In this document: in pieces, positions 4,972 through 37,017 of the stretch
How positions within the stretch are numbered: position 1 is the first letter of the stretch
How the letters are laid out: each line of letters begins with the position of its first letter
IMG/VR virus record: IMGVR_UViG_2778261545_000003
Length of the DNA stretch: 37,682 bases
Direction: 5' to 3' (one strand)
Source of the DNA: a virus
Lineage: Duplodnaviria > Heunggongvirae > Uroviricota > Caudoviricetes
Notes under the pieces: generated by a model
Database searches by the model: none
Seen by the model: the letters and a program-made list of their open reading frames with translations, nothing else
Told to the model about the DNA's origin: nothing
Position numbers and translations under genes: made by a program

Positions 4972-5825
4972 GCACCATCCTGAAATGGGCGGGAAATAAA
5001 ACCGCCATTATGTCCGAACTGAAAAAACACCTTCCTGCTGGCCCGCGACTGGTTGAACCTTTCGCGGGTTCCTGTGCTGTGATGATGGAGACGGATTACC
5101 CCAGCTATCTTGTTGCGGATATTAATCCTGATTTAATCAACCTCTATAAAAAGGTTGCTGCTGATTGCGAGGCGTTTATATCTCGTGCCAGAGCTTTATT
5201 TGAGGAAGCAAACAGGGAGTTGGCTTATTACAACATAAGGCAGGAGTTTAATTACTCCACTGAAATTACTGATTTCATGAAAGCGGTATATTTCCTGTAT
5301 CTCAATCGTCATGGTTACCGTGGGTTATGTCGTTATAACAAGAGCGGGCATTTCAACATTCCATACGGTAATTATAAAAATCCGTATTTCCCTGAAAAAG
5401 AAATTCGCGCATTTGCAGAGAAAGCCCAGCAAGCAACGTTTATCTGCGCCAGCTTTGATGAAACGCTGGCGATGCTGCAGGTGGGGGATGTGGTGTATTG
5501 CGATCCGCCTTATGACGGTACGTTTTCCGGCTATCACACTAACGGCTTCACTGAAGATGACCAGTATCACCTGGCATCTGTTCTTGAATATCGATCATCA
5601 GAAGGTCATCCAGTCATTGTTTCTAACAGTGACACATCCCTGATCCGTTCGCTGTATCGAAATTTCACTCACCACTACATCAAGGCAAAACGCAGCATCG
5701 GCGTGTCGGCTGGCGAGAGTAAATCTGCAACAGAAATCATCGCTGTTTCTGGGGCGCGCTGCTGGGTGGGATTTGATCCTTCGCGTGGCGTGGATAGTTC
5801 TGCCGTGTACGGAGTGCGTGCATGA
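4968..5825 (+). CDS. dam: DNA adenine methyltransferase (Dam-like, N6-adenine)
   Basis: N-terminal SAM-binding region (ILKWAGNK...PFAGSCAV) and DPPY catalytic motif (VYCDPPYDG); GGAGG RBS before ATG 4968. Confidence 0.85.
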
Positions 5826-8236
5826 GCCATGCTGATATGAACAACTGCAGCGGCTTTAACGAGGCCGCCGCAGCATTCTCATGGAACAGCCCGAAAAAGG
5901 CTATTAACCCTTATCTGGACCTGGCGGAAGTTGCGCCGGTTTCTGCGCTTTCAAACCTGATCACTCTGTACGCTGCCGATAACGAGCAGGAACAACTGCG
6001 CCGCGAGGCACTGAGTGATCAGGTTTGGGAGCGTTATTTCTTTAATGAATCCCGTGATCCTGTCCAGCGCGAAATGGAGCAGGATAAGTTCATTAGCCGG
6101 GCAAAGTTGGCGCATGAGCAGCAGCGTTTTAACCCGGACATGGTCATTCTGGCAGACGTTAACGCCCAGCCTTCCCATATCAGCAGGCCGCTGATGCAAC
6201 GTATTGAATACTTCAGCAGCCTTGGCAGGCCAAAGGCTTATTCCCGCTATTTACGTGAGACGATTAAGCCATGTCTGGAACGGCTGGAGCATGTACGCGA
6301 CAGTCAGCTATCCACTTCTTTTCGCTTTATGGCAAGCCATGAAGGGCTGGACGGCCTGCTGATTCTGCCTGAAATGAGTCAGGATCAGGTGAAACGCCTG
6401 TCCACCCTTGTTGCTGCGCATATGAGCATGTGCCTTGATGCAGCTTGTGGCGATTTGTATGCCACCGATGACGTTAAGCCAGAAGAAATCCGCAAGACAT
6501 GGGAAAAGGTGGCAGCAGAAACCCTGCGACTGGATGTCATACCGCCTGCGTTTGAGCAACTCCGCCGGAAAAGAAACCGCCGTAAACCCGTGCCCTATGA
6601 ACTCATTCCGGGTTCGCTGGCGCGTATGTTGTGCGCCGATTGGTGGTACCGGAAATTATGGAAGATGCGTTGCGAATGGCGGGAAGAGCAGTTGCGTGCT
6701 GTTTGCCTGGTCAGCAAAAAAGCATCTCCCTATGTCAGCTATGAAGCCATGATGCATAAACGTGAGCAGCGCCGTAAGTCGCTGGAGTTTTTCCGTTCTC
6801 ATGAACTGGTGAACGAAGACGGCGACACGCTGGACATGGAGGATGTGGTAAACGCCAGCAGCAGCAACCCTGCGCATCGCCGCAATGAGATGATGGCCTG
6901 TGTTAAAGGTCTGGAGCTTATCGCGGAAATGCGCGGTGACTGCGCCGTTTTCTACACCATCACCTGTCCGTCACGTTTCCATTCCACGCTAAATAACGGC
7001 AGGCCCAACCCGACCTGGACAAATACGACGGTAAGACAAAGCAGTGATTATCTGGTCGGCATGTTTGCTGCATTTCGTAAGGCGATGCACAAAGCCGGAT
7101 TGCGCTGGTATGGCGTGCGGGTGGCTGAGCCGCATCATGACGGTACAGTTCACTGGCACCTGTTGTGTTTTATGCGCAAAAAAGATCGCCGCACCATTAC
7201 TGCTTTGTTGCGTAAGTTTGCCATTCGTGAAGACCGCGAGGAGCTGGGTAATAACACGGGACCACGCTTTAAGTCTGAGCTGATAAACCCGCGCAAAGGT
7301 ACGCCAACAAGCTACATCGCGAAATACATCAGTAAGAACATTGACGGGCGTGGTCTGGCTGGCGAGATCAGCAAGGAAACGGGTAAATCCCTGCGTGATA
7401 ACGCTGAATACGTTAATGCCTGGGCGTCTCTGCATCGTGTTCAGCAATTCCGCTTCTTTGGCATTCCGGGGCGTCAGGCTTACCGTGAACTGCGATTGCT
7501 GGCTGGTCAGGCGGCAAGGCAACAGGGGGACAAAAAAGCAGGTGCGCCGGTACTGGATAACCCGCGCCTTGATGCAATCCTGGCTGCTGCTGATGCTGGT
7601 TGTTTTGCCACCTACATCATGAAGCAGGGCGGCGTACTGGTTCCCCGCAAATATCACCTCATCAGAACTGCTTATGAAATCAACGAAGAACCGACCGCAT
7701 ATGGCGATCACGGTATTCGTATTTATGGCATCTGGTCACCCATTGCAGAGGGCAAGATCTGCACTCATGCGGTGAAGTGGAAAATGGTTCGTAAGGCCGT
7801 TGACGTTCAGGAGGCGGCAGCCGACCAGGGCGCTTGCGCCCCTTGGACTCGTGGCAATAACTGTCCCCTTGCTGAAAATTTGAACCAACAGGAGAAAGAT
7901 AAATCAGCTGATGGGGACACCAGAACGGACATTACCCGCATGGATGACAAGGAGTTGCACGATTACCTGCACAGTATGAGCAAAAAAGAGCGCCGGGAAC
8001 TGGCAGCAAGGTTACGCCTGGTTAAACCGAAACGGCGTAAAGACTACAAACAGCGAATTACAGACCATCAGCGACTGCAGCTCGTCTATGAGCTGAAGTC
8101 CAGAGGATTTGATGGTAGCGAGAAAGAGGTCGATGTACTCCTTCGCGGCGGCAGTATTCCGTCAGGAGCAGGCCTGCGTATCTTCTATCGGAACCAGCGT
8201 TTGCGGGAAGATGATAAGTGGCGGAACCTGTATTAA
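5822..8236 (+). CDS. A: Replication initiation protein A (rolling-circle HUH endonuclease)
   Basis: 804 aa with HUH motif ([10 protein letters not shown]) and paired-tyrosine motif (YIAKYISK) typical of P2 A / phiX174 A initiators; start overlaps dam stop. Confidence 0.9.
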
Positions 8237-9088: not shown

Positions 9089-9619
9089 TTAACCTTGTAT
9101 AGTTATTTGAATATTTTCTTCATTAACACCAAAGTATAGGGCTAGCCCTGCTTTTGCCTCCTGAAGTGTTAACGGCTTAACTACATTTTCTTCTTCTTCT
9201 TCGTACTCATCACCCGCTTGATCGACAATCGAATTAGTCGGGGTTAATTTGGGAAGAGCTTTAAATTCCAACTTGTCAGCCTCAATGCCAATGTCTTTGA
9301 GGTTGCGATAAGAAACGGGATTCCGATTGCCATCCCATTGTCCTGGGATGTCAATTTCAGCATAAGAATTGATGTTTATGATCCAGCGTTTAGGGTTTTC
9401 TGGAGCCCTGCTTACTCCCGAGATTCGACCGATCATAAAAGCATGATGATGTTTTGCTTCTTGTGATCCCCAGTCCTTTCTCGAATTTTGTACACAAACT
9501 AAATATTCGTGCTTAGCTGCATGGCTGGCGTCAAGTCTCCATGCTTGGCTTCCCCCTGTGTTCAAAATCTCTGTTAAACCACGAGCAGTAAGTACAGTAA
9601 TACAGTTGGTAGTAGCCAT
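9089..9619 (-). CDS. Hypothetical cargo protein (176 aa) in the variable region between the SOS operon and cos
   Basis: Clean ORF on the opposite strand with acidic stretch EYEEEEEN; AT-rich; no recognisable motif. Confidence 0.55.
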   Translation of the reverse strand: MATTNCITVLTARGLTEILNTGGSQAWRLDASHAAKHEYLVCVQNSRKDWGSQEAKHHHAFMIGRISGVSRAPENPKRWIININSYAEIDIPGQWDGNRNPVSYRNLKDIGIEADKLEFKALPKLTPTNSIVDQAGDEYEEEEENVVKPLTLQEAKAGLALYFGVNEENIQITIQG

Positions 9620-9936
9620 TGAATTGTGACCCCGTCTTTTTTAGAGAAATACTGTTGATGAATGTAGTTTACGTATTTTTTTATGGAGTAGTCAAGTTAG
9701 TATTATGCTCATTATTGGCTGTTTGTTGAGTGTTATGAGTTGGTACTTTGTGTAGTACCTCTTGATTTATGAGGATTAAATCTAAGTTATGACAAAGGGA
9801 GGCAGGGGGAACGCGCAGCGCAAGGTGGACAGGAGGCCATAAGGACTCACTTGAAGTAAGAAAAGATCGATAAAGCAACAATGCATGTCTATGCCGCATG
9901 AATTCGCATGATCGTTTGAGGATCGTTTTAGTTGAG

Positions 9937-9964
9937 GCCCGCCAGGAATGGCGGGCTTTTGTTT
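9937..9964 (+). terminator. Intrinsic terminator (GC hairpin plus T-tract) with no obvious upstream plus-strand gene
   Basis: GCCCGCC-aggaat-GGCGGGC followed by TTTTGTTT. Confidence 0.5.
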
Positions 9965-10005: not shown

Positions 10006-10024
10006 GGCGTGGCGGGGATACGAG
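10006..10024. other. Candidate cos (cohesive end) site
   Basis: GGCGTGGCGGGGATACGAG resembles the 19-nt P2/186 cohesive ends as I recall them (P2 GGCGAGGCGGGGAAAGCAC), matching at 14 of 19 positions; lies in a GC-rich patch of an otherwise AT-rich intergenic region. Confidence 0.4.
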
Positions 10025-10176
10025 CGCGCGTTAAGCCATATAAGAGTTATATATTGATTTGATTGCTGGACATACATACAGTATCGCTCTATCATCTAAT
10101 AAATCTTAGGGTATTTGACAATGTTTGGATAAAATGGAACCTAACTTATTCATAATCCGCTAAACAGGGATGTCAG

Positions 10177-11091
10177 ATGCCATACCAATTGGTAGAGCTT
10201 AGCCCCGTAGCTAACGATCTTGAACAGTTAGGAACCAAAGAGAAGTTTTGGTTCTATTTCTCCGATGACACTGTAAATTTGCAGTTGTTTAAGTACTCTA
10301 GGCCAGGTACTGGCGAGCATTGGTCTGAAAAGTGTGCTGCTGAGTTATGTCATTTGCTTAACATTCCACATGCTAGCTATGATTTGGCGCGATACAATGG
10401 TCGATTCGGTGTGGTGACTCAGAATATCATTCCATCTGGTTTCCGGATGGTAATGGGAAATGAAGTGCTTCACAGTTCGACATTCGATTATCCTGGGCCT
10501 TTACAAGCCGGGGAAAAGCCGGTAAGGGTCAGAGAACACACTGTCACAAGGGTCTTGGGTTGTTTAGATAGGGAATCTATCAAGCCTCCTCCGAGTGTAT
10601 ATGATCTAACCGGGCTAAATGCAGCAGATGTATTTTGTGGATATTTGATGCTCGATGCACTTGTGAGTAATCAAGATCGCCACCATGAAAATTGGGCAAT
10701 CATGCTTAACAATGAAACTGGTGAGCAGTTTTTGTGTCCAACATACGATCATGCCGCTAGTTTAGGAAGGGAGATGTTAGATGATGAGCGTAACGAACGG
10801 CTTAATACTAAAGATAAAAATCGACAAATCCCATGTTTTGTAAGAAAAGCTCGCTCTGAGCTATTCAAAGCAAAAACTGATAAAAAGCCCTTGCTGACTG
10901 TTGAAGCATTTCAACATGCAGTTGAAGGGAGAGTTGCCGCTCGCGACCATTGGTTAGGTAAGTTGAGCGTTTTAACAGAAGATTCCATTACAGATGTGTT
11001 TAACCAAGTGCCTTCATCGTGTATATCCGACAGTGCACGTAGATTTGCAACGTTAATGGTAATGGAAAATCGCAGAAGGTTACTAGAATGA
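10177..11091 (+). CDS. HipA-like / PI3-4K-like small Ser/Thr kinase (cargo)
   Basis: 304 aa; catalytic-loop-like LVSNQDRHHENWAIM (DRH..N) and downstream YDHAASLG (metal-binding Asp), plus N-terminal LGTKEKFW; AGGGA RBS; stop overlaps the next gene by 4 nt. Confidence 0.55.
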   Translation: MPYQLVELSPVANDLEQLGTKEKFWFYFSDDTVNLQLFKYSRPGTGEHWSEKCAAELCHLLNIPHASYDLARYNGRFGVVTQNIIPSGFRMVMGNEVLHSSTFDYPGPLQAGEKPVRVREHTVTRVLGCLDRESIKPPPSVYDLTGLNAADVFCGYLMLDALVSNQDRHHENWAIMLNNETGEQFLCPTYDHAASLGREMLDDERNERLNTKDKNRQIPCFVRKARSELFKAKTDKKPLLTVEAFQHAVEGRVAARDHWLGKLSVLTEDSITDVFNQVPSSCISDSARRFATLMVMENRRRLLE

Positions 11092-11828
11092 CTAATACAA
11101 ACTCCGTTTACGTCGCATGGCAGGCACCAGATACCAGAGACTGGCATGTTGTTGGTAACTTGCAAGAGCGCAAATCGGGGTATGTTTTCAGGTATACCAA
11201 AGGTGCTCTTAAATCTTCTAAATTTACAAAGTTTAGCGGCATGAGTGATGTTCGTGAAACTTATGTATCGGAAGAATTGTTTCCTCTTTTTAAAAATCGC
11301 CTTTTATCACCGAGACGTCCAGAGTATCCGAGTTTCATTAAATGGCTTGGATTTGAAGAAGATAAGGTAAATCCTATCGATATTCTTGCTCGCTCGGGAG
11401 GCTTACGAAGCACTGATCAGCTGCAGATTTTCAAAAAAATTGATTTTGATTCTGATGGTAACTTTGAGCATTTTTTCTTCTTACATGGACTTGGTTACTT
11501 GAATAGCTTAGCTAATGCTCGTGTATCTGAATTGAAACCGGGGCAAATTTTGCGTCTTTGCTTGGATCTTCAAAATGAATACGATGGGGATGCTGTTGTC
11601 GTTCGTGCAGATAAACCAGCTGAAATCGTTGGTTACTGCCCTAGGTATTTAAGTAATGACATCAAGAAGATGTTATTGGATGATCCAAAATCAATCACTT
11701 TAACGGTCGAAAAGATTAGCGATGATGCTCCTCATAACTATCGGTTATTATGTAAATTATCAGGGGTACTAAGCCAAGCCTGTCAATCGACGCTGATTCC
11801 TCAAGATGAGTTTGAACCTATTGAGTAA
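11088..11828 (+). CDS. Protein with C-terminal HIRAN-like domain (cargo, partner of the kinase)
   Basis: 246 aa; C-terminal LQNEYDGDAVVVRADKPAEIVGYCPRYLSNDIKKMLLD fits the HIRAN pattern (N.YD.nAi.V...........lGY.PR..........L); translationally coupled to the upstream kinase gene. Confidence 0.5.
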   Translation: MTNTNSVYVAWQAPDTRDWHVVGNLQERKSGYVFRYTKGALKSSKFTKFSGMSDVRETYVSEELFPLFKNRLLSPRRPEYPSFIKWLGFEEDKVNPIDILARSGGLRSTDQLQIFKKIDFDSDGNFEHFFFLHGLGYLNSLANARVSELKPGQILRLCLDLQNEYDGDAVVVRADKPAEIVGYCPRYLSNDIKKMLLDDPKSITLTVEKISDDAPHNYRLLCKLSGVLSQACQSTLIPQDEFEPIE

Positions 11829-11835
11829 ATGAAGA

Positions 11836-11861
11836 AAAGCCACCAAACGGTGGCTTTTCTT
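11836..11861. terminator. Bidirectional intrinsic terminator between the HIRAN gene and Q
   Basis: AAAA-GCCACC-aaac-GGTGGC-TTTTCTT; A-tract and T-tract flank the hairpin. Confidence 0.6.
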
Positions 11862-11862
11862 A

Positions 11863-12903
11863 TTATGGGGCTATATCTAGCGAGTAGGTATCAAACCGTA
11901 TCGCCTCCTTGCCAAGCCAATCATTCATCTCCTGTAATCGCTTTTGTAGTGGCATTAGCTCATTTCGGACGAATACACGGCTTGCCTTCTCCACATCCCC
12001 AAACCCCCCAACATTATTCGGCATAATCCCCATCATTTGCGGTGGCACACGGTGCGCTGCCATCATGTCATCGCGGCTGACATTTTTGATATTCAGAAAC
12101 TCATCCTTCGCCGCGACTTCTGACAATGGGATGATCTGAAGTCCGTCCTTTTTGCCGTTAGGCGAGTACATAAACAGATTGCGGAAGTTACCTGGTCCTT
12201 TGGCGCTTTTCATCGCGTTACGGAGGTTGTTTACATCCTCCTGGTTCTGCGCGGCGTCGGTCATGTACATGATGAAGCCTGCATGACTGCCGTTAATGTA
12301 ATACTTTCGACGGAACAGCGTGGCGGACTCGTTGAGCAGGGCTGACGGAATGGCAGAAAGATAACCGGGCAGGCCGTAGATCTCCTGGTTGATATCCGGT
12401 TCCATCAGGTGAAAAATGCTGCCTTTCGTGAACTGATACGGTTGCGTTGTCATGCCGTATTGCACAAACCAGTAGGTATCCAGGTCTAATCCACGTCGGG
12501 TGTATTTTGCCAGGGCAGGCTCAAGGGCGATAACTTCACCGAATCGGTTCGTGCGTTTCTCCAGGTAGGCGTTACCAAATACCAGATAGTCCTGCACAAA
12601 ACGCGAAAGAGCCTGCTGGCTGAGCAGCGGATGAGGGATATAGGTACTGGTCAGAATGTTGCACTTTACTGCAATCGGGGAACTGTGATGCACGGCGGCG
12701 CGGAAGGTGCGCGCCAGTCCGTCAAAGCTGACGGGCGGCTCATACCAACGGTCCATCTGTACGCATTCCACATAGTCCAGCAGTTCACGGCGGTCCAGAA
12801 CAGGAACGGGATCGCCGAAGCTGAATGCTTCGGCTGTAGCTTGACTTTTAAGCTGGATCTGTTTCGTCGCCGCAGCTCGGTTCTTCTTACTCTTTCCCAT
12901 CAA
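11863..12903 (-). CDS. Q: Portal protein
   Basis: 346-aa ORF in the P2 Q position, in a leftward operon with the terminase gene. Confidence 0.85.
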   Translation of the reverse strand: MMGKSKKNRAAATKQIQLKSQATAEAFSFGDPVPVLDRRELLDYVECVQMDRWYEPPVSFDGLARTFRAAVHHSSPIAVKCNILTSTYIPHPLLSQQALSRFVQDYLVFGNAYLEKRTNRFGEVIALEPALAKYTRRGLDLDTYWFVQYGMTTQPYQFTKGSIFHLMEPDINQEIYGLPGYLSAIPSALLNESATLFRRKYYINGSHAGFIMYMTDAAQNQEDVNNLRNAMKSAKGPGNFRNLFMYSPNGKKDGLQIIPLSEVAAKDEFLNIKNVSRDDMMAAHRVPPQMMGIMPNNVGGFGDVEKASRVFVRNELMPLQKRLQEMNDWLGKEAIRFDTYSLDIAP

Positions 12904-20177: not shown

Positions 20178-20616
20178 ACTGCAGAAGGTGGACGACTGGC
20201 TGAGTGCCTTGCTGGCGAATCTGGAACCAGCCACGAGAAGCCGCATGATGCGCCAACTGGCGCAGGAACTGCGCCGGACACAGCAGCAGAATATCAGGAT
20301 GCAGCGCAATCCAGATGGCAGCAGTTATGAACCGCGCAGGGTAACAGCACGCAGCAAAAAAGGCCGCATCAAACGTCAGATGTTTGCAAAGCTGCGCACC
20401 ACAAAATACCTGAAAACTGCCGCCAGCGCCGACTCTGCCAGCGTACAGTTTGAAGGCAAGGTGCAGCGTATTGCCCGTGTTCACCATTACGGCCTGCGCG
20501 ATCGTGTCAGTCGCAAAGGACCGGAAGTGCGTTATGCAGAGCGGCGGTTGCTTGGTATCAATAACAAGATGCAGTCTGTCATTGGAGATATATTGCATCA
20601 GTGGCTGTTTAAATGA
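20170..20616 (+). CDS. S: Tail completion / virion morphogenesis protein S
   Basis: 148-aa ORF, P2 gpS position. Confidence 0.8.
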   Translation: MAELQKVDDWLSALLANLEPATRSRMMRQLAQELRRTQQQNIRMQRNPDGSSYEPRRVTARSKKGRIKRQMFAKLRTTKYLKTAASADSASVQFEGKVQRIARVHHYGLRDRVSRKGPEVRYAERRLLGINNKMQSVIGDILHQWLFK

Positions 20617-20660: not shown

Positions 20661-21476
20661 TCATATTTTTAATTTTTTATGGATATGCTCCATCCCTAAA
20701 TTAGATATCTCTTTTTTTAGCTGGGTTTCACTTGCAGTTATCCAGTTTTTTCCACAGTTTGGTAGAAGCATCTCGCTACTTGACGGATTGATAAGTTTTA
20801 CTTTTTCATTCTTTATAATTTTGTTTTTCAAATAACTTTTACTTATTAAGGCTGATTTTTCAGTTATAACGAGATAAAAAAATATGCTTCCAAAAAATAT
20901 ACCTTTTAAAATAATACCGCTGCGTAACAGAACAGGGTCATTTTTGGTTATTCTCATTTTAAAGGGAGAGCAAAGGTTGTCTTCACTTGTAGGTATATTA
21001 AGTTCACTTTTTTGCTCGTCAGTAAGTTTAAGAGGCATGAGCAGTCCAGCGAAGAGCATGACATCTTTTTCTGAAGGCAAAGGTTCTCCGCGGAGAATAT
21101 AATCTTTATATGCGCCAAAAATATGTGTCGATGGATCATTGACCGCGCTTGCCGAGTTGTAAGAAATTTTCATTAACCAGCGTAGCAATAAATGATAATC
21201 ATAAGTTATAGTCGTTTGTGTCTTTAGATAAAGTTGGGTTAAGAAACCGTTTCTGGCTAAAAACTGACTTCCATAATCATCTAAAAAACTTAATGCTCCA
21301 CCATTGCATGTTTTACAAACATCGGCAATTGTTGCCTCACCACCAATTATATCATTTGCTCTCTCGTTCCAGCCTATAAAACGATCTCCAGATTCTTTTT
21401 GATATTTATATATAAATTTAGGGATAATATGTTCTCTTTCTATTATTCCATCTTGCTCGCAATATCTGCAGTGCAT
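20661..21476 (-). CDS. Cargo protein with N-terminal HNH-like (His-Me finger) nuclease motif
   Basis: 271 aa; CRYCEQ...EHIIPKF...GG...CKTCNGG arrangement typical of HNH endonucleases; strongly AT-rich, opposite strand, inserted between S and the V late promoter. Confidence 0.55.
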   Translation of the reverse strand: MHCRYCEQDGIIEREHIIPKFIYKYQKESGDRFIGWNERANDIIGGEATIADVCKTCNGGALSFLDDYGSQFLARNGFLTQLYLKTQTTITYDYHLLLRWLMKISYNSASAVNDPSTHIFGAYKDYILRGEPLPSEKDVMLFAGLLMPLKLTDEQKSELNIPTSEDNLCSPFKMRITKNDPVLLRSGIILKGIFFGSIFFYLVITEKSALISKSYLKNKIIKNEKVKLINPSSSEMLLPNCGKNWITASETQLKKEISNLGMEHIHKKLKI

Positions 21477-21583: not shown

Positions 21584-22162
21584 ATGAACGCACAATTAAC
21601 CGAAATCATGCGCCTTATCACCAACCTGATCCGCACTGGGGTAGTCACCGAAGTGGACAGGGAAAACTGGCTTTGCCGGGTGAAAACGGGCGAGCTTGAA
21701 ACTAACTGGATCAGTTGGCTGACGCTGCGTGCAGGAAATGCCCGGACATGGTGGCGACCATCGGAAGGTGAGCAGGTGGTGCTGCTGAGTCTGGGCGGTA
21801 ATCTGGAAACCGCGTTTGCCCTGCCTGCGGTCTACTCAAACCAGTTTCCGCCACCTTCAGGCTCTGAGGACGGCAACGTGACGGAATACCCGGACGGCGG
21901 CTGGTTTGAATACGAACCCGCCACCGGGCGCTGGTATGTCAGGGGCATCAAATCAATGGTCATTGAGGCCGCTGACAATATCACCCTGAAAACCAGTGTG
22001 TTTGTGCTGGAGGCTGACCGCACGCGTATTAACAGCGAAGTGGTGATTAATGGTGGCGTTACCCAGGGCGGCGGAGCGATGAGCTCTAACGGGATTGTGG
22101 TTGATGCGCATCAGCATACTGGCGTCCTGAAAGGCGGCGATACAACCGGAGGCCCGGTATGA
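21584..22162 (+). CDS. V: Baseplate spike protein V
   Basis: 192-aa ORF, P2 gpV-like. Confidence 0.85.
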   Translation: MNAQLTEIMRLITNLIRTGVVTEVDRENWLCRVKTGELETNWISWLTLRAGNARTWWRPSEGEQVVLLSLGGNLETAFALPAVYSNQFPPPSGSEDGNVTEYPDGGWFEYEPATGRWYVRGIKSMVIEAADNITLKTSVFVLEADRTRINSEVVINGGVTQGGGAMSSNGIVVDAHQHTGVLKGGDTTGGPV

Positions 22163-33421: not shown

Positions 33422-34518
33422 ATTTCAGCTCTGAACTGCTTAACAAAGGCAACAAAACTCCGGCATTCAGCATCAGTATTGAAGGCAGGGATATCACCAC
33501 TGTGCTGGACAACTGCCTGATGGGGCTGACGCTGACGGATAACCGGGGCTTTGAAGCAGACCAGCTTGATCTGGAACTGGACGACGCCGACGGAAAAATC
33601 GTGCTGCCGCGTCGTGGTGCGGTTATTACGCTGGCGCTGGGCTGGAAAGGGCAGCCGCTTTTCCCGAAAGGGGCATTCACGGTGGACGAGATTGAACACA
33701 CTGGCGCACCGGATCGCCTGACTATCCGGGCGCGAAGTGCTGATTTTAGGGAAACGCTGAATACCCGCCGTGAAAAATCGTGGCATAACACCACTGTCGG
33801 GGAAGTGGTGAAGGAAATAGCCGCGCGTCACAAGCTGAAGATGGCACTGGGTAAAGACCTGTCGGATAAGCCCGTGGAACATATAGACCAGACTAATGAG
33901 AGTGACGGCAGTTTTCTGATGCGGCTGGCGCGCCAGTACGGTGCCATCGCGTCGGTTAAAAATGGCAATCTGTTATTCATCCGGCAGGGACAGGGTAAAA
34001 GCGCCAGCGGTAAACCACTACCGGTTATCACTATCACACGTAAGGACGGCGACAGTCACCGCTTTACCCTGGCAGATCGCGGAGCCTACACGGGCGTAAT
34101 TGCCAGCTGGTTGCATACCCGCGAACCCGCGAAGAAAGAAAGCACCACGGTGAAGCGTAAGCGCAGGACTAAGAAGCAGAAGAAAGAGCCGGAAGCGAAG
34201 CAGGGCGATTACCTGGTGGGTACGGATGAAAACGTGCTGGTACTTAATCGCACTTATGCCAACCGGAGCAACGCCGAACGAGCGGCGAAAATGCAGTGGG
34301 AACGCCTGCAACGCGGCGTTGCGTCATTTTCGCTACAACTGGCAGAAGGGCGGGCAGATCTCTACACGGAAATGCCTGTGAAGGTCAGTGGTTTTAAACA
34401 GCCGATAGATGATGCGGAATGGACCATTACGACTCTGACGCATACCGTCAGCCCGGATAACGGTTTTACGACCAGTCTGGAGCTTGAAGTGAGGATTGAT
34501 GATTTCGAAATGGAATGA
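33418..34518 (+). CDS. D: Tail protein D
   Basis: 366-aa ORF, P2 gpD position. Confidence 0.8.
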   Translation: MNFSSELLNKGNKTPAFSISIEGRDITTVLDNCLMGLTLTDNRGFEADQLDLELDDADGKIVLPRRGAVITLALGWKGQPLFPKGAFTVDEIEHTGAPDRLTIRARSADFRETLNTRREKSWHNTTVGEVVKEIAARHKLKMALGKDLSDKPVEHIDQTNESDGSFLMRLARQYGAIASVKNGNLLFIRQGQGKSASGKPLPVITITRKDGDSHRFTLADRGAYTGVIASWLHTREPAKKESTTVKRKRRTKKQKKEPEAKQGDYLVGTDENVLVLNRTYANRSNAERAAKMQWERLQRGVASFSLQLAEGRADLYTEMPVKVSGFKQPIDDAEWTITTLTHTVSPDNGFTTSLELEVRIDDFEME

Positions 34519-34608
34519 TTCTTCGCAATGGAGAACTTTTAAGTTTGCAAAATGGAATAATGCGGTATCATTATTGTGAATTTAGCAAAAATGGGGAGGA
34601 CTCGAAAA

Positions 34609-34827
34609 ATGATGATTTGCCCACTGTGTGGAAGTGCCGCCCATACTCGCAGCAGTTTTCAGGTATCTTCATTGACCAAAGAGCGTTACAACCAGTGCCA
34701 GAACATTAACTGCAGCCATACTTTTGTTACCCATGAAACTTTTGTTCGTTCGATTGCAACGCCAAAAGAGTCAAATCCGGTTCAGCCGCATCCAATGAAA
34801 TCAGGACAGGTGGCGCTCTCTCTTTGA
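34609..34827 (+). CDS. ogr: Late gene transcriptional activator Ogr (zinc finger)
   Basis: 72 aa from ATG 34609 (SD GGGGAGGA): MMICPLCGSAAHTRSS...KERYNQCQNINCSHTFVTHE, Cys4 pattern as in P2 Ogr; last prophage gene. Confidence 0.85.
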   Translation: MMICPLCGSAAHTRSSFQVSSLTKERYNQCQNINCSHTFVTHETFVRSIATPKESNPVQPHPMKSGQVALSL

Positions 34828-34912
34828 CGCTGCCGCCATTTTGTCGCCATCGTTAAAAAACAGTGCTTCTAACATCATGATTTTAAACAGCTTAAATTTC
34901 AGGCAACAAAAA

Positions 34913-34950
34913 ACCCATCAACCTTGAACCGAAATGGCGGGGTTGATGGG
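34913..34950 (-). terminator. Stem-loop with T-tract on minus strand, probably the ybjL terminator (host side of the junction)
   Basis: CCCATCAACC-N18-GGTTGATGGG with a T-run (TTTTTTGTTG) following on the minus strand, about 110 nt downstream of the ybjL stop. Confidence 0.45.
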
Positions 34951-35062
34951 CTCCACAAAATGGGGACATCAAAGAAAAGCAGTGGCATTAATTAAGACTG
35001 ATGCCCTGCGGAAAAGTTCTGCGGTTGTGCAAAAAAATTTCATTTTCAGGGCAACTTCAGTT

Positions 35063-36748
35063 TTATCCTAATCCTGGCCATACCATGACGATGATTGTCC
35101 CTGCCAGCGTCAGCAGGACGTTGGCGATTGCGTAGGTGCCCGCATAGCCCAGCGCAGGGATGTTACTGCGAGCTGTATCACTGATGATCTCCATTGCCGG
35201 CGCGCAGGTGCGTGCGCCCATCATTGCGCCGAACAACAGTGCGCGGTTCATTCGCAATACATAAGCACCGAACAAGAAACAGATAACCACGGGCACAAGA
35301 CTGACAATTAATCCGGCAATCAACATCTGACCGCCAATCGCGCCCAGGCCGTTATTAATACCGCTACCGGCGCTCAGACCAACGCCTGCCATAAACACCA
35401 TCAAGCCGAACTCTTTCACCATGCTTAATGCACCTTGCGGAATGTAACCGAAGGTCGGGTGGTTAGCACGCATAAAGCCCAGCATAATTCCGGCGAATAA
35501 CAACCCGGCAGCGTTCCCCATGCCGAAACTGAATGTGCTGAACTGGAAGGTGATCATCCCGATCATCAGCCCAATAACAAAGAAGGCGCAAAATGCCAGC
35601 AGGTCAGTGACCTGGCTGTGAATCGAGATAAAGCCGATGCGATCGGCGATGGTTTTTACGCGACGGGCATCACCGCTGACTTGTAAAACGTCACCTTTGT
35701 TAAGCACGACGTTGTCATCTATCGGCATCTCAATCTGGCTACGAATGACGCGGTTAAGGAAGCAACCGTGATCGGTCAACTTCAGTTGTGCGAGACGTTT
35801 ACCTACAGCGTTATGGTTTTTAACGACCACTTCTTCAGTGACGATACGCATGTCGAGAAGGTCACGATCGAAAACTTCTTTACCGTTACGGAAGCTGGGA
35901 TCGAGTCGGGCATGGGCGTCGGGATAGCCTACCAACGCTATTTCATCGCCCATTTGTAGCACGGCATCACCGTCTGGATTTGCCAGAATCCCGTTACGTC
36001 GAATACGTTCAATGTAGCAGCCGGTTTGTCGATAAATACCCAGTTCACGCAGATTTTTGCCGTCGGTCCAGGCCACCAGCTCCGGGCCGACGCGATAGGC
36101 GCGGATCACCGGTAAATAAACCTTACGGTTGGCATCAGTGTCCAGGCCACGTTCGCGGGCGATTTGCTGGGCGCTGGTCTGTAAGTCCTGATGCTGCAAT
36201 TTCGGCAAGTAACGCGCACCAACAATCAAACTCACCAGACCGATTAAATAGGTTAAGGCATACCCGAGGCTCAGATTATCCAGTGCCAGTGAGAGCTGCC
36301 TGCTTTCCATGCCGGAATGACGCAGTGTATCGCCAGCACCGACCAGAACCGGTGTCGACGTCATAGAGCCTGCTAACATACCGGCCGTCAGGCCAATATC
36401 CCAGCCAAACAGCTTACCTAACCCTAAGGCGATCACCAGCGCACTGCCAACCATCACCAGTGCTAACATTAGGTAATTTTTCCCATCGCGAAAAAAAATG
36501 GAAAAAAAGTTCGGTCCGGCTTCGACCCCGACGCAGAAAATAAACAGCATAAAGCCAAGATTAAGCGCATCGGTGTTAATGCTGAAATGTTGTTGGCCTA
36601 ATAACAGCGATACGACTAAAACGCCAATGGAATTACCCAGTTGGATCGAACCAAGTCGTAACTTTCCGAGACATAGCCCAAGCGCGAGGACCACAAATAA
36701 TAACAGAATGTAATTCCCATTTAACAATTCGGCGACGTTTATATTCAC
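35063..36748 (-). CDS. ybjL: Putative transport protein YbjL (host)
   Basis: 561-aa polytopic membrane protein recognised as E. coli YbjL. Confidence 0.85.
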
Positions 36749-37017
36749 GGAGGCTAACTTCTTGTTTACTAGTAAGCTGTTGAAAGAAATGGTAATTTAC
36801 GATAATGTTTTTTACCAGAATTCAGGGCGCAGATTCATTCAGCGCACCTAAACGATAGTAAAGTAACAATATATTTTACTAGTGTAATCACATTAGGTAT
36901 CAACGGCTATATGAATTGCGTTGGCCTATATTAGCATGGAATGCGAAGCGGCTTTATCTTACTGAACGCCACACTGGCGAAAAATGTGTTCGATAGACGC
37001 AGTGTCAGGAGGAACGA

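Follow-up and report, generated by a model that had tools for sequence, protein, structure and literature searches.

A hipIN gene pair in the cos-proximal cargo slot of an Escherichia coli P2-like prophage

The two genes located between the cos site and the portal gene of an E. coli P2-like prophage are hipIN, which encodes the kinase HipI and the putative antitoxin HipN. The pair is already catalogued, and its identification is correct but not new. The family, its architecture, a hypothesised mechanism and its presence in the same hotspot have all been published; the window, i.e., the whole stretch of 37,682 nucleotides analysed, adds a test case, not a discovery.

hipIN was described by Gerdes, Baerentsen & Brodersen in 2021 (PMC8262856) as a putative toxin-antitoxin (TA) module in clade XI of the Hip kinase tree. 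That report already proposes that the HIRAN domain senses phage DNA ends, upon which the kinase is activated and the infection aborts (PMC8262856). PDC-M03, the corresponding PADLOC entry, is a phage-defence candidate that Payne et al. 2024 predicted by guilt-by-embedding. Table S5 of Rousset et al. 2022 (PMC9122126) places WP_001146828 and WP_000185756, which are these very proteins, in the P2 gpA-gpQ hotspot; a homologue from a Vibrio prophage is labelled there "HIRAN-kinase" and "unknown system", and "hypothetical + HIRAN" cassettes are also reported. The sequence-only reading, which did not recognise the pairing and held that a match to a toxin-antitoxin pair would end its novelty, is overturned on this point by the matches to hipIN, PDC-M03 and "HIRAN-kinase". 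The profile searches that it had suggested returned a HIRAN match above the cut-off, a weak HipA_C match and the PDC-M03 match. No experiment on hipIN, HipL or HIRAN kinases was found in the searchable literature.

A two-gene insert between cos and the portal gene

The host element carries a two-gene insert of 1.84 kb between the cos core and the portal gene Q. The slot and its signals map as follows.

10006..10024, + strand: cos core of P2-like phages, left edge of the cargo slot (P2/186-type core GGCGTGGCGGGGATACGAG)
10031..11872, no strand: AT-rich cargo insert between cos and Q (homology to P2-like phages with other cargo is interrupted)
10067..10095, + strand: best sigma-70-like promoter candidate, TGGACA-17-TATCAT (consensus scan, 10/12 matches)
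10115..10120, + strand: TTGACA hexamer of the sequence-only reading (read from the sequence; absent from the consensus-scan output)
11832..11861, both strands: bidirectional intrinsic terminator (hairpin with U-tracts on both sides)
11863..12903, - strand: portal gene Q, right edge of the slot (ORF list, RefSeq annotation, homology to P2 Q)

The core GGCGTGGCGGGGATACGAG is the sole match to the P2/186 cos consensus in the window (0 expected by chance), and positions 10006-10024 align with P2 cosL and with the annotated cos of phage Cartapus. The cos core and the Q stop codon are 1838 bp apart, whereas the cosL-to-Q interval of P2 is geneless and spans 167 bp. Homology to P2-like phages carrying other cargo ends at 10030 and restarts at approximately 11873-11900. 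In the same slot, Cartapus features DUF4145 and phage 500465-1 features TIR. The G+C content of the insert (10031-11872) is 40.6%, as against 55.1% in the Q-P genes and 50.6% in the whole window. The G+C values, the cos match and the comparison with P2 all agree with the original proposal of an AT-rich insertion at a site where P2 has no genes. The slot corresponds to the gpA-gpQ hotspot known from P2-like phages, which hosts a large variety of anti-phage genes, several of which have been validated as defence systems (Rousset et al. 2022, PMC9122126).

The terminator, initially placed at 11836..11861, corresponds to a hairpin at 11832-11861 that is stable on both strands, with free energies of -21 kcal/mol (+ strand; z -5.1) and -20.4 kcal/mol (- strand; z -6.2). 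It is common to hipIN and to the convergent Q-P operon, and aligns with P2 tQ, of which it is the positional equivalent. The promoter is less clearly marked: four promoter-like sites were found in the insert region versus 5.9 expected in shuffled sequence, which indicates no enrichment. The TTGACA hexamer suggested earlier as a possible promoter is present, but no -10 hexamer lies 16-18 nt from it, the sole nearby TAAAAT being 9 nt off, and this candidate was dropped for lack of a correctly spaced -10 element.

As the sequence-only reading had it, the two genes are translationally coupled: the hipI stop and the hipN start overlap by 4 nt (ATGA, 11088-11091), and a ribosome-binding site for hipN (GAAGG) is found at 11075-11079. 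The operon contains no HTH/HipB gene; upstream of it lie the cos site and a 150-bp leader.

HipI, a short HipA-family kinase

Judged by sequence conservation and by its modelled fold, HipI is a catalytically intact, short HipA-family kinase that lacks the N-subdomain 1 of HipA.

10177..11091, + strand: hipI, short HipA-family Ser/Thr kinase of 304 aa; presumed toxin/effector (PADLOC, phrog, fold)
10222..10245, + strand: Gly-rich (ATP-binding) loop E16-Q-L-G-T-K-E-K23 (homologue conservation, motif)
10669..10692, + strand: catalytic loop N165-Q-D167-R-H-H-E-N172 (conservation, hhalign)
10747..10752, + strand: Mg-binding motif D191-H192, within YDHAAS (conservation, alignment)

HipI matches the PADLOC model PDC-M03A (E 2e-122, residues 2-304) and phrog_8728, and is named "HipA domain-containing protein" in RefSeq. 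The Pfam HipA_C match is weak (E 3.6e-4, under the curated cut-off), NCBIfam HipA/YjjJ models match at E > 0.1 only, and HipI, searched among PDB sequences both as a single sequence and as a profile, led to CtkA alone, the one chain below E 0.01 with the profile (E 0.0026). Despite the weak HipA_C score, HipI is regarded as a kinase because fold comparison and family profiles confirm it. The AlphaFold model (pLDDT 81) matches HipA (3dnt/3tpt, E 2e-6), Legionella HipT (8ezr_B) and, as the best structural match, CtkA (3akj, E 6e-10, query TM ~0.65).

In the Gly-rich loop, which by motif matches HipA S150-V-A-G-A-Q-E-K, there is no variation at E16, G19, K21 and K23, and 56 of 59 homologues have Ser or Thr at position 20. 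Residues N165, D167, R168, H169 and N172 of the catalytic loop are invariant in 61 diverse homologues, as is D191 (61/61), which aligns with HipA D332. The D167 codon (GAT, 10675-10677), embedded in the sequence encoding SNQDRHHENW, is paired with HipA D309 by hhalign, in which HipI residue 1 corresponds approximately to HipA residue 140; against the single HipA sequence, the expected motifs of both HipI and HipN were aligned with non-significant scores. The NQDRHHEN loop, with the D167 codon at 10675, and the downstream DHA motif, both noticed at the outset, were located, and D167 and D191 within them are invariant in homologues.

HipN, a HipS-like domain fused to a HIRAN domain

11088..11828, + strand: hipN, two-domain partner of 246 aa; putative antitoxin and sensor (PADLOC, phrog, AlphaFold)
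11088..11441, + strand: HipS-like domain, HipN residues ~1-118, equivalent to HipA N-subdomain 1 (Foldseek, Pfam, hhalign)
11466..11771, + strand: HIRAN domain, HipN residues 127-228 (Pfam, Foldseek)
11571-11585, + strand: predicted DNA 3'-end binding pocket, Q162-N-E-Y-D166 (hhalign to HLTF)

HipN matches PDC-M03B (E 7e-93, residues 1-244) and phrog_8026, and its AlphaFold model has a pLDDT of 84.7 and a pTM of 0.81. Comparison of the full-length profile with PDB sequences remained at chance level (best E 0.31; E 0.66 for the HIRAN protein 3k2y), and the profile of the N-terminal domain yielded no match among them. These searches are too weak, and fold comparison is therefore needed. Foldseek matched the N-terminal domain with HipS of the E. 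coli HipBST system (7ab3_E, E 1.8e-3, target TM 0.73; also 7vkb_B). Pfam Couple_hipA is weak on this domain and present in 20 of 25 diverse homologues; HipN residues 20-72 were aligned with HipA 11-65 by hhalign, at a non-significant score. The LFPLFKNR motif (11277-11300) is invariant, and 80 homologues show no change at L64, F65, P66, F68, N70, R71, R77, T109 and D110. This HipS-like domain, which Foldseek, hhalign and Couple_hipA all indicate, was overlooked in the sequence-only reading; its presence makes the pair a split HipA, i.e., a design of the toxin-antitoxin type. On the evidence of alignments and models, HipN supplies the N-subdomain 1 absent from HipI, fused to a HIRAN domain.

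The HIRAN-like C-terminal domain had been correctly spotted. Pfam HIRAN (PF08797) matches at E 1e-13, with 51.3 bits versus a cut-off of 24.7, and Foldseek retrieved the HIRAN domain of HLTF (4xzg, 4s0n) and lp_0118 (3k2y) at E 6e-5 to 1e-3 and target TM 0.65-0.74. HLTF residues Y93 and D94 sit in the pocket that holds the DNA 3' end, as established by structural work on HLTF. N163, Y165 and D166 of HipN align by hhalign with HLTF N91, Y93 and D94, and G182 aligns with G109. In about half of the distant HipN homologues, the pair equivalent to Y93/D94 is Ala-Thr; binding of DNA 3' ends, as read from these alignments, may therefore be confined to part of the family.

Assignment to hipIN rests on architecture and PADLOC models. 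The 304-aa kinase falls within the 279-321 aa range of HipI proteins and carries the Gly-rich loop at residues 16-23; in up to 61 homologues, the core residues G19, K21, K23, D167, H169, N172 and D191 show no variation; and the partner gene product combines HIRAN with a HipS-like match. Similarly, the adjacent genes match M03A and M03B of PDC-M03 and overlap by 4 nt. The locus has neither the upstream HipB HTH protein nor the HipA of ~440 aa with N-subdomain 1 that mark canonical hipBA type II TA modules. It also departs from the tripartite hipB-hipS-hipT organization with a free HipS of ~100 aa, as it has only two genes, opens with that of the kinase, and carries the HipS-like domain in one protein with HIRAN.

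Linkage and genomic contexts

Of 80 species-level genome loci, 71 have hipI immediately upstream of hipN, and stop and start codons overlap in 60 of these 71; the same order is found in all 54 IMG/VR viral contigs (54/54). HipN-like genes without any kinase occur in eight loci, and some of them adjoin SNF2 or HsdR ATPases. Type I restriction-modification (RM) genes adjoin about a quarter of the genome loci, with HsdR next to hipIN in 20/80 loci, HsdM in 10 and HsdS in 9, an adjacency that reproduces the guilt-by-embedding prediction. hipIN occurs in many phyla, and its non-phage settings include the interior of type I RM operons and a genomic island on which it lies beside cdiBA and an IS element. 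Given these many non-phage contexts, the idea of hipIN as a cos-specific module was dropped. Across P2-like phages, hipIN identity tracks portal identity, with Q at 62-99%. Clustering of flanking ORFs in search of a third conserved component yielded no more than subunits of type I RM systems, a YgjP-like peptidase and phage capsid genes.

Possible function and alternative readings

hipIN is carried as cargo in the variable hotspot next to cos of a P2-like prophage, and we are inclined to see it as a toxin-antitoxin-like abortive-infection module. This idea, raised when the locus was first noticed, stands as a candidate, and the domains, the operon and the location between cos and Q named at that time also hold. 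When another phage infects the cell, the HIRAN domain would be engaged by replication intermediates or free DNA 3' ends, or else HipN would be lost; in either case the kinase would be released. Free HipI might then phosphorylate a component essential for translation, which is probably an aminoacyl-tRNA synthetase. HipA is known to phosphorylate GltX, and HipT to phosphorylate TrpS. Growth would stop and the infection would abort, so that the lysogen population, and hence the prophage, would be protected. The toxicity of HipI, its target and its trigger are all points that we infer. Rolling-circle replication and cos ends of P2 also yield DNA ends, and a simple trigger responding to any 3' end therefore risks self-activation.

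Several observations favour an abortive-infection role, namely, the position of hipIN in a defence hotspot, its embedding in RM operons, the occurrence of TIR and DUF4145 in the same slot, and the retention of residues equivalent to HLTF Y93/D94 in the HipN of the window. Speaking against it, the fused relative pFR108 was tested and is not in the validated list. The kinase-less HipN-like genes at eight loci speak against an antitoxin role, as a pure antitoxin should not persist alone. A more specific scheme, which we put forward tentatively and hold to be doubtful, would make HipI-HipN a DNA-end-gated split kinase, with HipN serving both as the off-clamp and as a sensor by which HipI is released or recruited once the HIRAN pocket has captured free 3' DNA ends from a phage that is entering or replicating. 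The pair would then be a functional counterpart of Ku/DNA-PK in prokaryotes, with translational arrest as its outcome, and HipN a DNA-end sensor shared between defence systems. If this were true, the kinase-less HipN-like genes beside HsdR/SNF2 translocases would mark HipN as a reusable sensor.

That hipIN is an ordinary type II TA (addiction) module is unlikely. Unstable HipN would neutralise HipI, the module would stabilise the prophage or island or promote persistence with no specific anti-phage role, and HIRAN would be only a DNA-binding or autoregulatory domain replacing HipB. This is consistent with the classification of hipIN as a putative TA module (PMC8262856), with its presence on mobile elements (prophages, and the genomic island with cdiBA and an IS element), and with the lack of validation of the related fused system pFR108 as defence; as the operon has no HipB/HTH, another DNA-binding regulatory function is also plausible. 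However, HIRAN domains bind DNA ends and not operators, as known from HLTF and supported by the fold match, recurrent embedding in type I RM operons and residence in a phage defence hotspot are typical of defence genes, and a leading kinase gene is unusual for autoregulated TA operons, in which the antitoxin comes first.

It is rather improbable that HipN is an activating or targeting subunit of a split kinase instead of an inhibitor. Its HipS-like domain would complete the HipA fold, and HIRAN would recruit the holoenzyme to DNA ends, where DNA-bound phage or host proteins would be phosphorylated, again by analogy with Ku/DNA-PK. N-subdomain 1 is indeed part of the active enzyme in full-length HipA, HipI plus the N-terminal domain of HipN approximates the length of HipA, natural fusions of kinase and HipS-like domains exist, and the N-terminal motifs show extreme conservation (LFPLFxNR, T109 and D110 without exception in 80/80 homologues). 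Yet the separate HipS is an inhibitor in HipBST, the sole split system studied experimentally, and HipN genes without a kinase exist. We consider it very improbable that hipIN serves the phage itself, in counter-defence, packaging control at cos or lysis-lysogeny control, and not in host protection. Its place directly beside cos, convergent with the portal and terminase genes, would fit such a role, and the tracking of portal identity suggests long residence in the lineage; but hipIN is missing from P2 and many P2-like phages, whose slot holds unrelated cargo, and it is also found far from phages, in type I RM operons and in many phyla.

Were the abortive-infection module to protect against phage, it would couple the sensing of DNA ends directly to a kinase that arrests translation, a sensing logic so far undemonstrated for any Hip kinase, and the P2 hotspot would gain one more validated system. 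The copy in the window offers a convenient native example in E. coli, being intact, located in a P2-like prophage and provided with its own terminator.

Comparison with known systems

The gene pair does not differ structurally from hipIN as published (PMC8262856): both feature a core kinase of ~300 aa that lacks N-subdomain 1 and has its Gly-rich loop close to the N terminus, the kinase gene stands first and is followed by a gene for a HipS-like protein with a C-terminal HIRAN domain, and proteobacterial members are described. The P2 cos-Q slot is not given there, and no experiments are reported. Both proteins also match the PDC-M03 models nearly end to end; in contrast to the RM-embedded setting, the copy in the window lies in a prophage and not within an RM operon. 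The HIRAN-kinase of Rousset et al. 2022 comprises the same proteins in the same hotspot, where it was catalogued and not tested.

The relative that has been tested is pFR108, an "Exonuclease + HipA" system of the P2 hotspot that was cloned and challenged with phages by Rousset et al. (PMC9122126). The authors place it among their "additional tested systems" only (Table S2B), and it is absent from the validated list (PMC9122126). In pFR108, a fused kinase is paired with a DEDD exonuclease, which the module in the window lacks. Protein 2 of pFR108 is a natural fusion of a HipI-like kinase and a HipN-like N-terminal domain that aligns to both, and its stored sequence ends before any HIRAN domain could appear. 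A DEDD exonuclease was excluded as a third hipIN component, as a search of 140 loci and of the window yielded no homologue of the pFR108 enzyme.

HipBST of E. coli O127:H6 and Legionella is likewise a split HipA, with a kinase devoid of N-subdomain 1 and a separate HipS, which neutralises the kinase at the Gly-rich loop. HipN matches HipS (7ab3_E) and HipI matches HipT (8ezr_B/7vkb_A) in fold, and the similarity is detectable by fold or weak profile matches only. In contrast to HipBST, hipIN has no HipB, reverses the gene order by placing the kinase first, and fuses the HipS-like domain to HIRAN. HipL combines the same kinase, HipS-like and HIRAN parts (PMC8262856) in one polypeptide, whereas hipIN distributes them over two coupled genes.

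HLTF/Rad5 HIRAN domains share fold and pocket residues with the HIRAN domain of HipN (N163, Y165, D166 and G182 in HipN), but are fused to an SNF2 ATPase and act in fork reversal, whereas the HIRAN of HipN is fused to a kinase-regulating domain. CtkA (Helicobacter pylori JHP0940) is, like HipI, a short HipA-like kinase without N-subdomain 1; it differs in being a stand-alone, secreted, pro-inflammatory kinase that has no HipS or HIRAN partner.

Organization of the cos-to-Q interval

The window constitutes the genome of a P2-like phage or prophage of E. coli, in which the gene pair hipIN lies between cos and the portal gene Q. The interval is organized as follows.

10006-10024 (+), P2/186-type cos core, GGCGTGGCGGGGATACGAG; single match in the window, 0 expected by chance
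10067-10095 (+), promoter candidate TGGACA-17-TATCAT
10177-11091 (+), hipI ORF, 304 aa
11088-11828 (+), hipN ORF, 246 aa
11832-11861 (both strands), hairpin, -21 and -20.4 kcal/mol; z -5.1 and -6.2

The sequence-only reading had placed an overlapping two-gene operon at 10177-11828. ORFs with these coordinates were found; the hipI stop and hipN start codons overlap (ATGA), and the hipN ribosome-binding site, GAAGG, sits within the 3' end of hipI. The AT-rich insertion described between cos and Q was also recovered, as evidenced by a G+C content of 40.6% versus 55.1% for the adjoining Q-P genes. Q ends at 11863, 1838 bp beyond the cos core, whereas the equivalent interval in phage P2 measures 167 bp and features the tQ terminator alone, with no gene. 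Homology of the flanks to P2-like phages with other cargo (for instance, a DUF4145 gene in Cartapus and a TIR gene in 500465-1) ends at 10030 and restarts at ~11873-11900, and the insert limits are therefore defined. The hairpin at 11832-11861, the positional equivalent of tQ, is strong on both strands, in agreement with the bidirectional terminator anticipated. The possible promoter at TTGACA (10115) is the one weak point of that reading, as no -10 hexamer occurs at 16-18 nt; the candidate at 10067-10095 is better, and promoter-like sites in the hipIN upstream region are not enriched over shuffled sequence. About 45 bp left of the cos core is a strong terminator-like hairpin with a T-tract after it (9934-9959, +; -20.8 kcal/mol, z -3.3), which would stop + strand transcription from running on into cos and hipIN.

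The CFSAN061772 chromosome matches bases 10100-11870 at 100% identity, and is annotated there, in order, with a "HipA domain-containing protein" (WP_001146828), a "HIRAN domain-containing protein" (WP_000185756) and a phage portal protein. In the matching prophage region, tail, D and ogr segments are duplicated and two tape-measure pseudogenes, both partial, are present, suggesting a tandem or rearranged P2-like prophage.

Other features of the window were also noted. A 176-aa ORF (9089-9619, -) occupies the A-to-cos half of the hotspot that holds hipIN, where P2 has tin/old. The ORF matches nothing in Pfam, PADLOC or NCBIfam, belongs to phrog_37247 (unknown function), has 74 homologue clusters, all unannotated, and assorts independently of hipIN, both being present on 1 of ~19 near-identical IMG/VR contigs. 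A 271-aa ORF (20661-21476, -), flanked by + strand ORFs ending at 20616 and starting at 21584, lies in a 33-36% G+C island inside the structural-gene region. Its N terminus is Cys-rich; Pfam HNH_5 matches weakly, below cut-off (E 5.5e-4), PADLOC does not match, and the ORF may be further accessory cargo. The composition profile revealed additional low-G+C segments (31-42%) at 1001-2500, which overlaps the integrase/repressor region, 34501-35000 and 36501-37000.

HipI and HipN proteins

The HipA-like kinase recognized in gene 1 was upheld, although Pfam HipA_C gave a sub-threshold match (E 3.6e-4). The PADLOC phage defence candidate model PDC-M03A covers HipI end to end (E 2e-122). The fold nearest to the AlphaFold model (pLDDT 81, pTM 0.85) is that of CtkA, an H. 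pylori kinase (E 6e-10), with HipA from E. coli (E 2e-6) and HipT from Legionella next. Residues N165, D167, R168, H169, N172, W173 and D191 are invariant across 61 diverse homologues, and hhalign equates D167 and D191 with HipA D309 and D332. An N-terminal Gly-rich loop, E16-Q-L-G-[S/T]-K-x-K, corresponds by motif to HipA S150-V-A-G-A-Q-E-K. Because these lines of evidence agree, HipI is, by sequence and predicted fold, an intact kinase without HipA N-subdomain 1.

E16 (10222-10224), which is motif-aligned to the HipA autophosphorylation site S150 (HipT S57), is Glu in 59/59 homologues, and position 20, after the loop Gly, is Ser or Thr in 56/59. These residues suggest that the loop is regulated differently from that of HipA or HipT.

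The HIRAN-like domain reported at the end of gene 2 is borne out by Pfam HIRAN (residues 127-228, E 1e-13) and by the resemblance of the HipN model (pLDDT 84.7) to the HIRAN domains of HLTF and lp_0118; PDC-M03B matches HipN at E 7e-93. The N-terminal half, omitted from the sequence-only reading, is HipS-like by fold. A separate match links the model to HipS from HipBST of E. coli (7ab3_E, E 1.8e-3, target TM 0.73) and to 7vkb_B, the HipS counterpart within the bacterial kinase complex 7vkb. Pfam Couple_hipA weakly matches 20 of 25 diverse HipN N-terminal domains, and residues 20-72 pair with HipA 11-65 (hhalign). HipI and the HipN N-terminal domain together are a split HipA. Sequence and model comparisons thus establish a predicted intact kinase, a partner carrying the missing HipA domain and a HIRAN fold, and tight operon coupling.

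HipN N163, Y165, D166 and G182 align with HLTF N91, Y93, D94 and G109, which structural work on HLTF locates in the 3'-end pocket. In comparisons with loci L019-L084, which carry HipN relatives, the Tyr-Asp pair (residues 165-166; 11580-11585) is retained in the gammaproteobacterial clade, including the window copy, and gives way to Ala-Thr in roughly half of the distant HipN homologues; N163, A169, G182 and P185 are invariant even there.

Distribution and genomic context

Taking one genome per species, HipN relatives were found in 230 stretches, from Proteobacteria, Verrucomicrobia, Planctomycetes, Cyanobacteria, Nitrospirae and other groups; the HipN family amounts to ~1000 clusters at 50% identity (E <= 1e-10). 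Among the best 80 loci, 71 have a HipI homologue encoded immediately before HipN in the same orientation, with stop/start codon overlap in 60 of these pairs. Pfam-confirmed HsdR adjoins 20 of the 80 loci, HsdM 10 and HsdS 9; hipIN thus frequently sits inside type I restriction-modification (RM) operons.

HipN occurs on 54 IMG/VR viral contigs, preceded by HipI in all 54. A convergent P2-type portal gene lies <=400 bp away in 36, and the cos core is also upstream in 31 of these; in the other 18 contigs, hipIN is away from any P2-type portal gene. The module's phage and RM-embedded context is hence directly observed. The cos-hipIN-portal arrangement is also found in two Enterobacterales genomes (L005 and L006). 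In P2-like contigs among the IMG/VR set (L087-L140), portal identity to the window (62-99%) drops in step with hipIN identity (~72-100%), suggesting long residence in the slot across a P2-like phage lineage, with co-divergence rather than recent insertion.

Complete E. coli genomes carry hipIN in 51 of 5426 cases. The window's allele accounts for 21 carriers, with the portal gene adjacent in 15/15 records listed. A second allele, ~67% identical in DNA, is present in 30/5426 genomes, including O157:H7 strains. In E. coli 1303 (NZ_CP009166.1, 1165805-1167464), the sole genome inspected for this allele, it lies in a non-P2 island alongside cdiA/cdiB, an ISL3 remnant and a KAP-family NTPase gene.

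Eight loci feature a HipN-like gene (HipS-like plus HIRAN) with no Hip kinase nearby, for instance (locus coordinates):

L034, L062, L064 and L076: ~5800-6800 or 1000-2600
L045: 5956-6732
L082: 5974-6744
L051: 5796-6581

These genes retain the invariant LFPLFxNR motif. Several are immediately flanked by hsdS on one side and hsdR on the other, in type I RM systems; one precedes the gene for a 1470-aa UvrD_C-like protein and one adjoins that for an HD-domain protein. Another is just downstream of a 1138-aa SNF2-family helicase, a HIRAN-plus-SNF2 neighbourhood that recalls eukaryotic HLTF/Rad5.

Possible mode of action

In HipBST, HipS keeps the HipT Gly-rich loop in an inactive position. By analogy, HipN would inhibit HipI in this manner, and HIRAN-bound DNA ends, or HipN loss, would release the kinase; growth would stop once HipI had phosphorylated an essential translation factor. 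The abortive-infection design put forward in the sequence-only reading is reasonable, and is the same as a published hypothesis: Gerdes et al. 2021 (PMC8262856) proposed that HIRAN recognises invading phage DNA ends, leading to kinase activation and abortive infection.

Several observations argue against so simple a mechanism. The HLTF Y93/D94 equivalents are replaced in about half of distant homologues, the eight kinase-less loci, several of them hsdS/hsdR- or SNF2-adjacent, have a HipN-like gene without a kinase, and P2's own replication and packaging also make DNA ends. Alternatively, hipIN could be a plain addiction module, HipI could be a DNA-targeted kinase that HipN activates, or the pair could have a phage-serving function.

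Relation to known systems

The sequence-only reading did not recognise the pairing as a named system, a view superseded by PDC-M03, by the hipIN family of Gerdes et al. (HipI kinase with HipN as putative antitoxin) and by the hotspot table of Rousset et al. 2022 (PMC9122126). PADLOC PDC candidates derive from Payne et al. 2024, who picked them out as genes embedded within BREX, DISARM or type I RM systems; PDC-M03 is designated "HipA and HIRAN". PDCs are predictions, and few others have been tested. Rousset et al. reported the P2-like gpA-gpQ region as a defence hotspot, included WP_001146828 and WP_000185756 among its contents, and gave a homologue in a Vibrio prophage the label "HIRAN-kinase, unknown system". 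Literature searches turned up no experimental work on hipIN itself, and a 2025 NAR paper still lists HipA-HIRAN genes as "predicted" defence genes.

Rousset et al. also cloned "Exonuclease + HipA" (pFR108) from a P2 hotspot (PMC9122126). In the second protein of this pair, a HipI-like kinase and a HipN-like N-terminal domain share one chain (hhalign probability 96% and 92.6%), a gene fusion that points to a functional link between the two; for pFR108, placement under "additional tested systems", outside the validated systems, calls for caution on the defence claim. hipIN is an already catalogued module, known as a candidate, and the copy described here offers a native E. coli example ready for testing.
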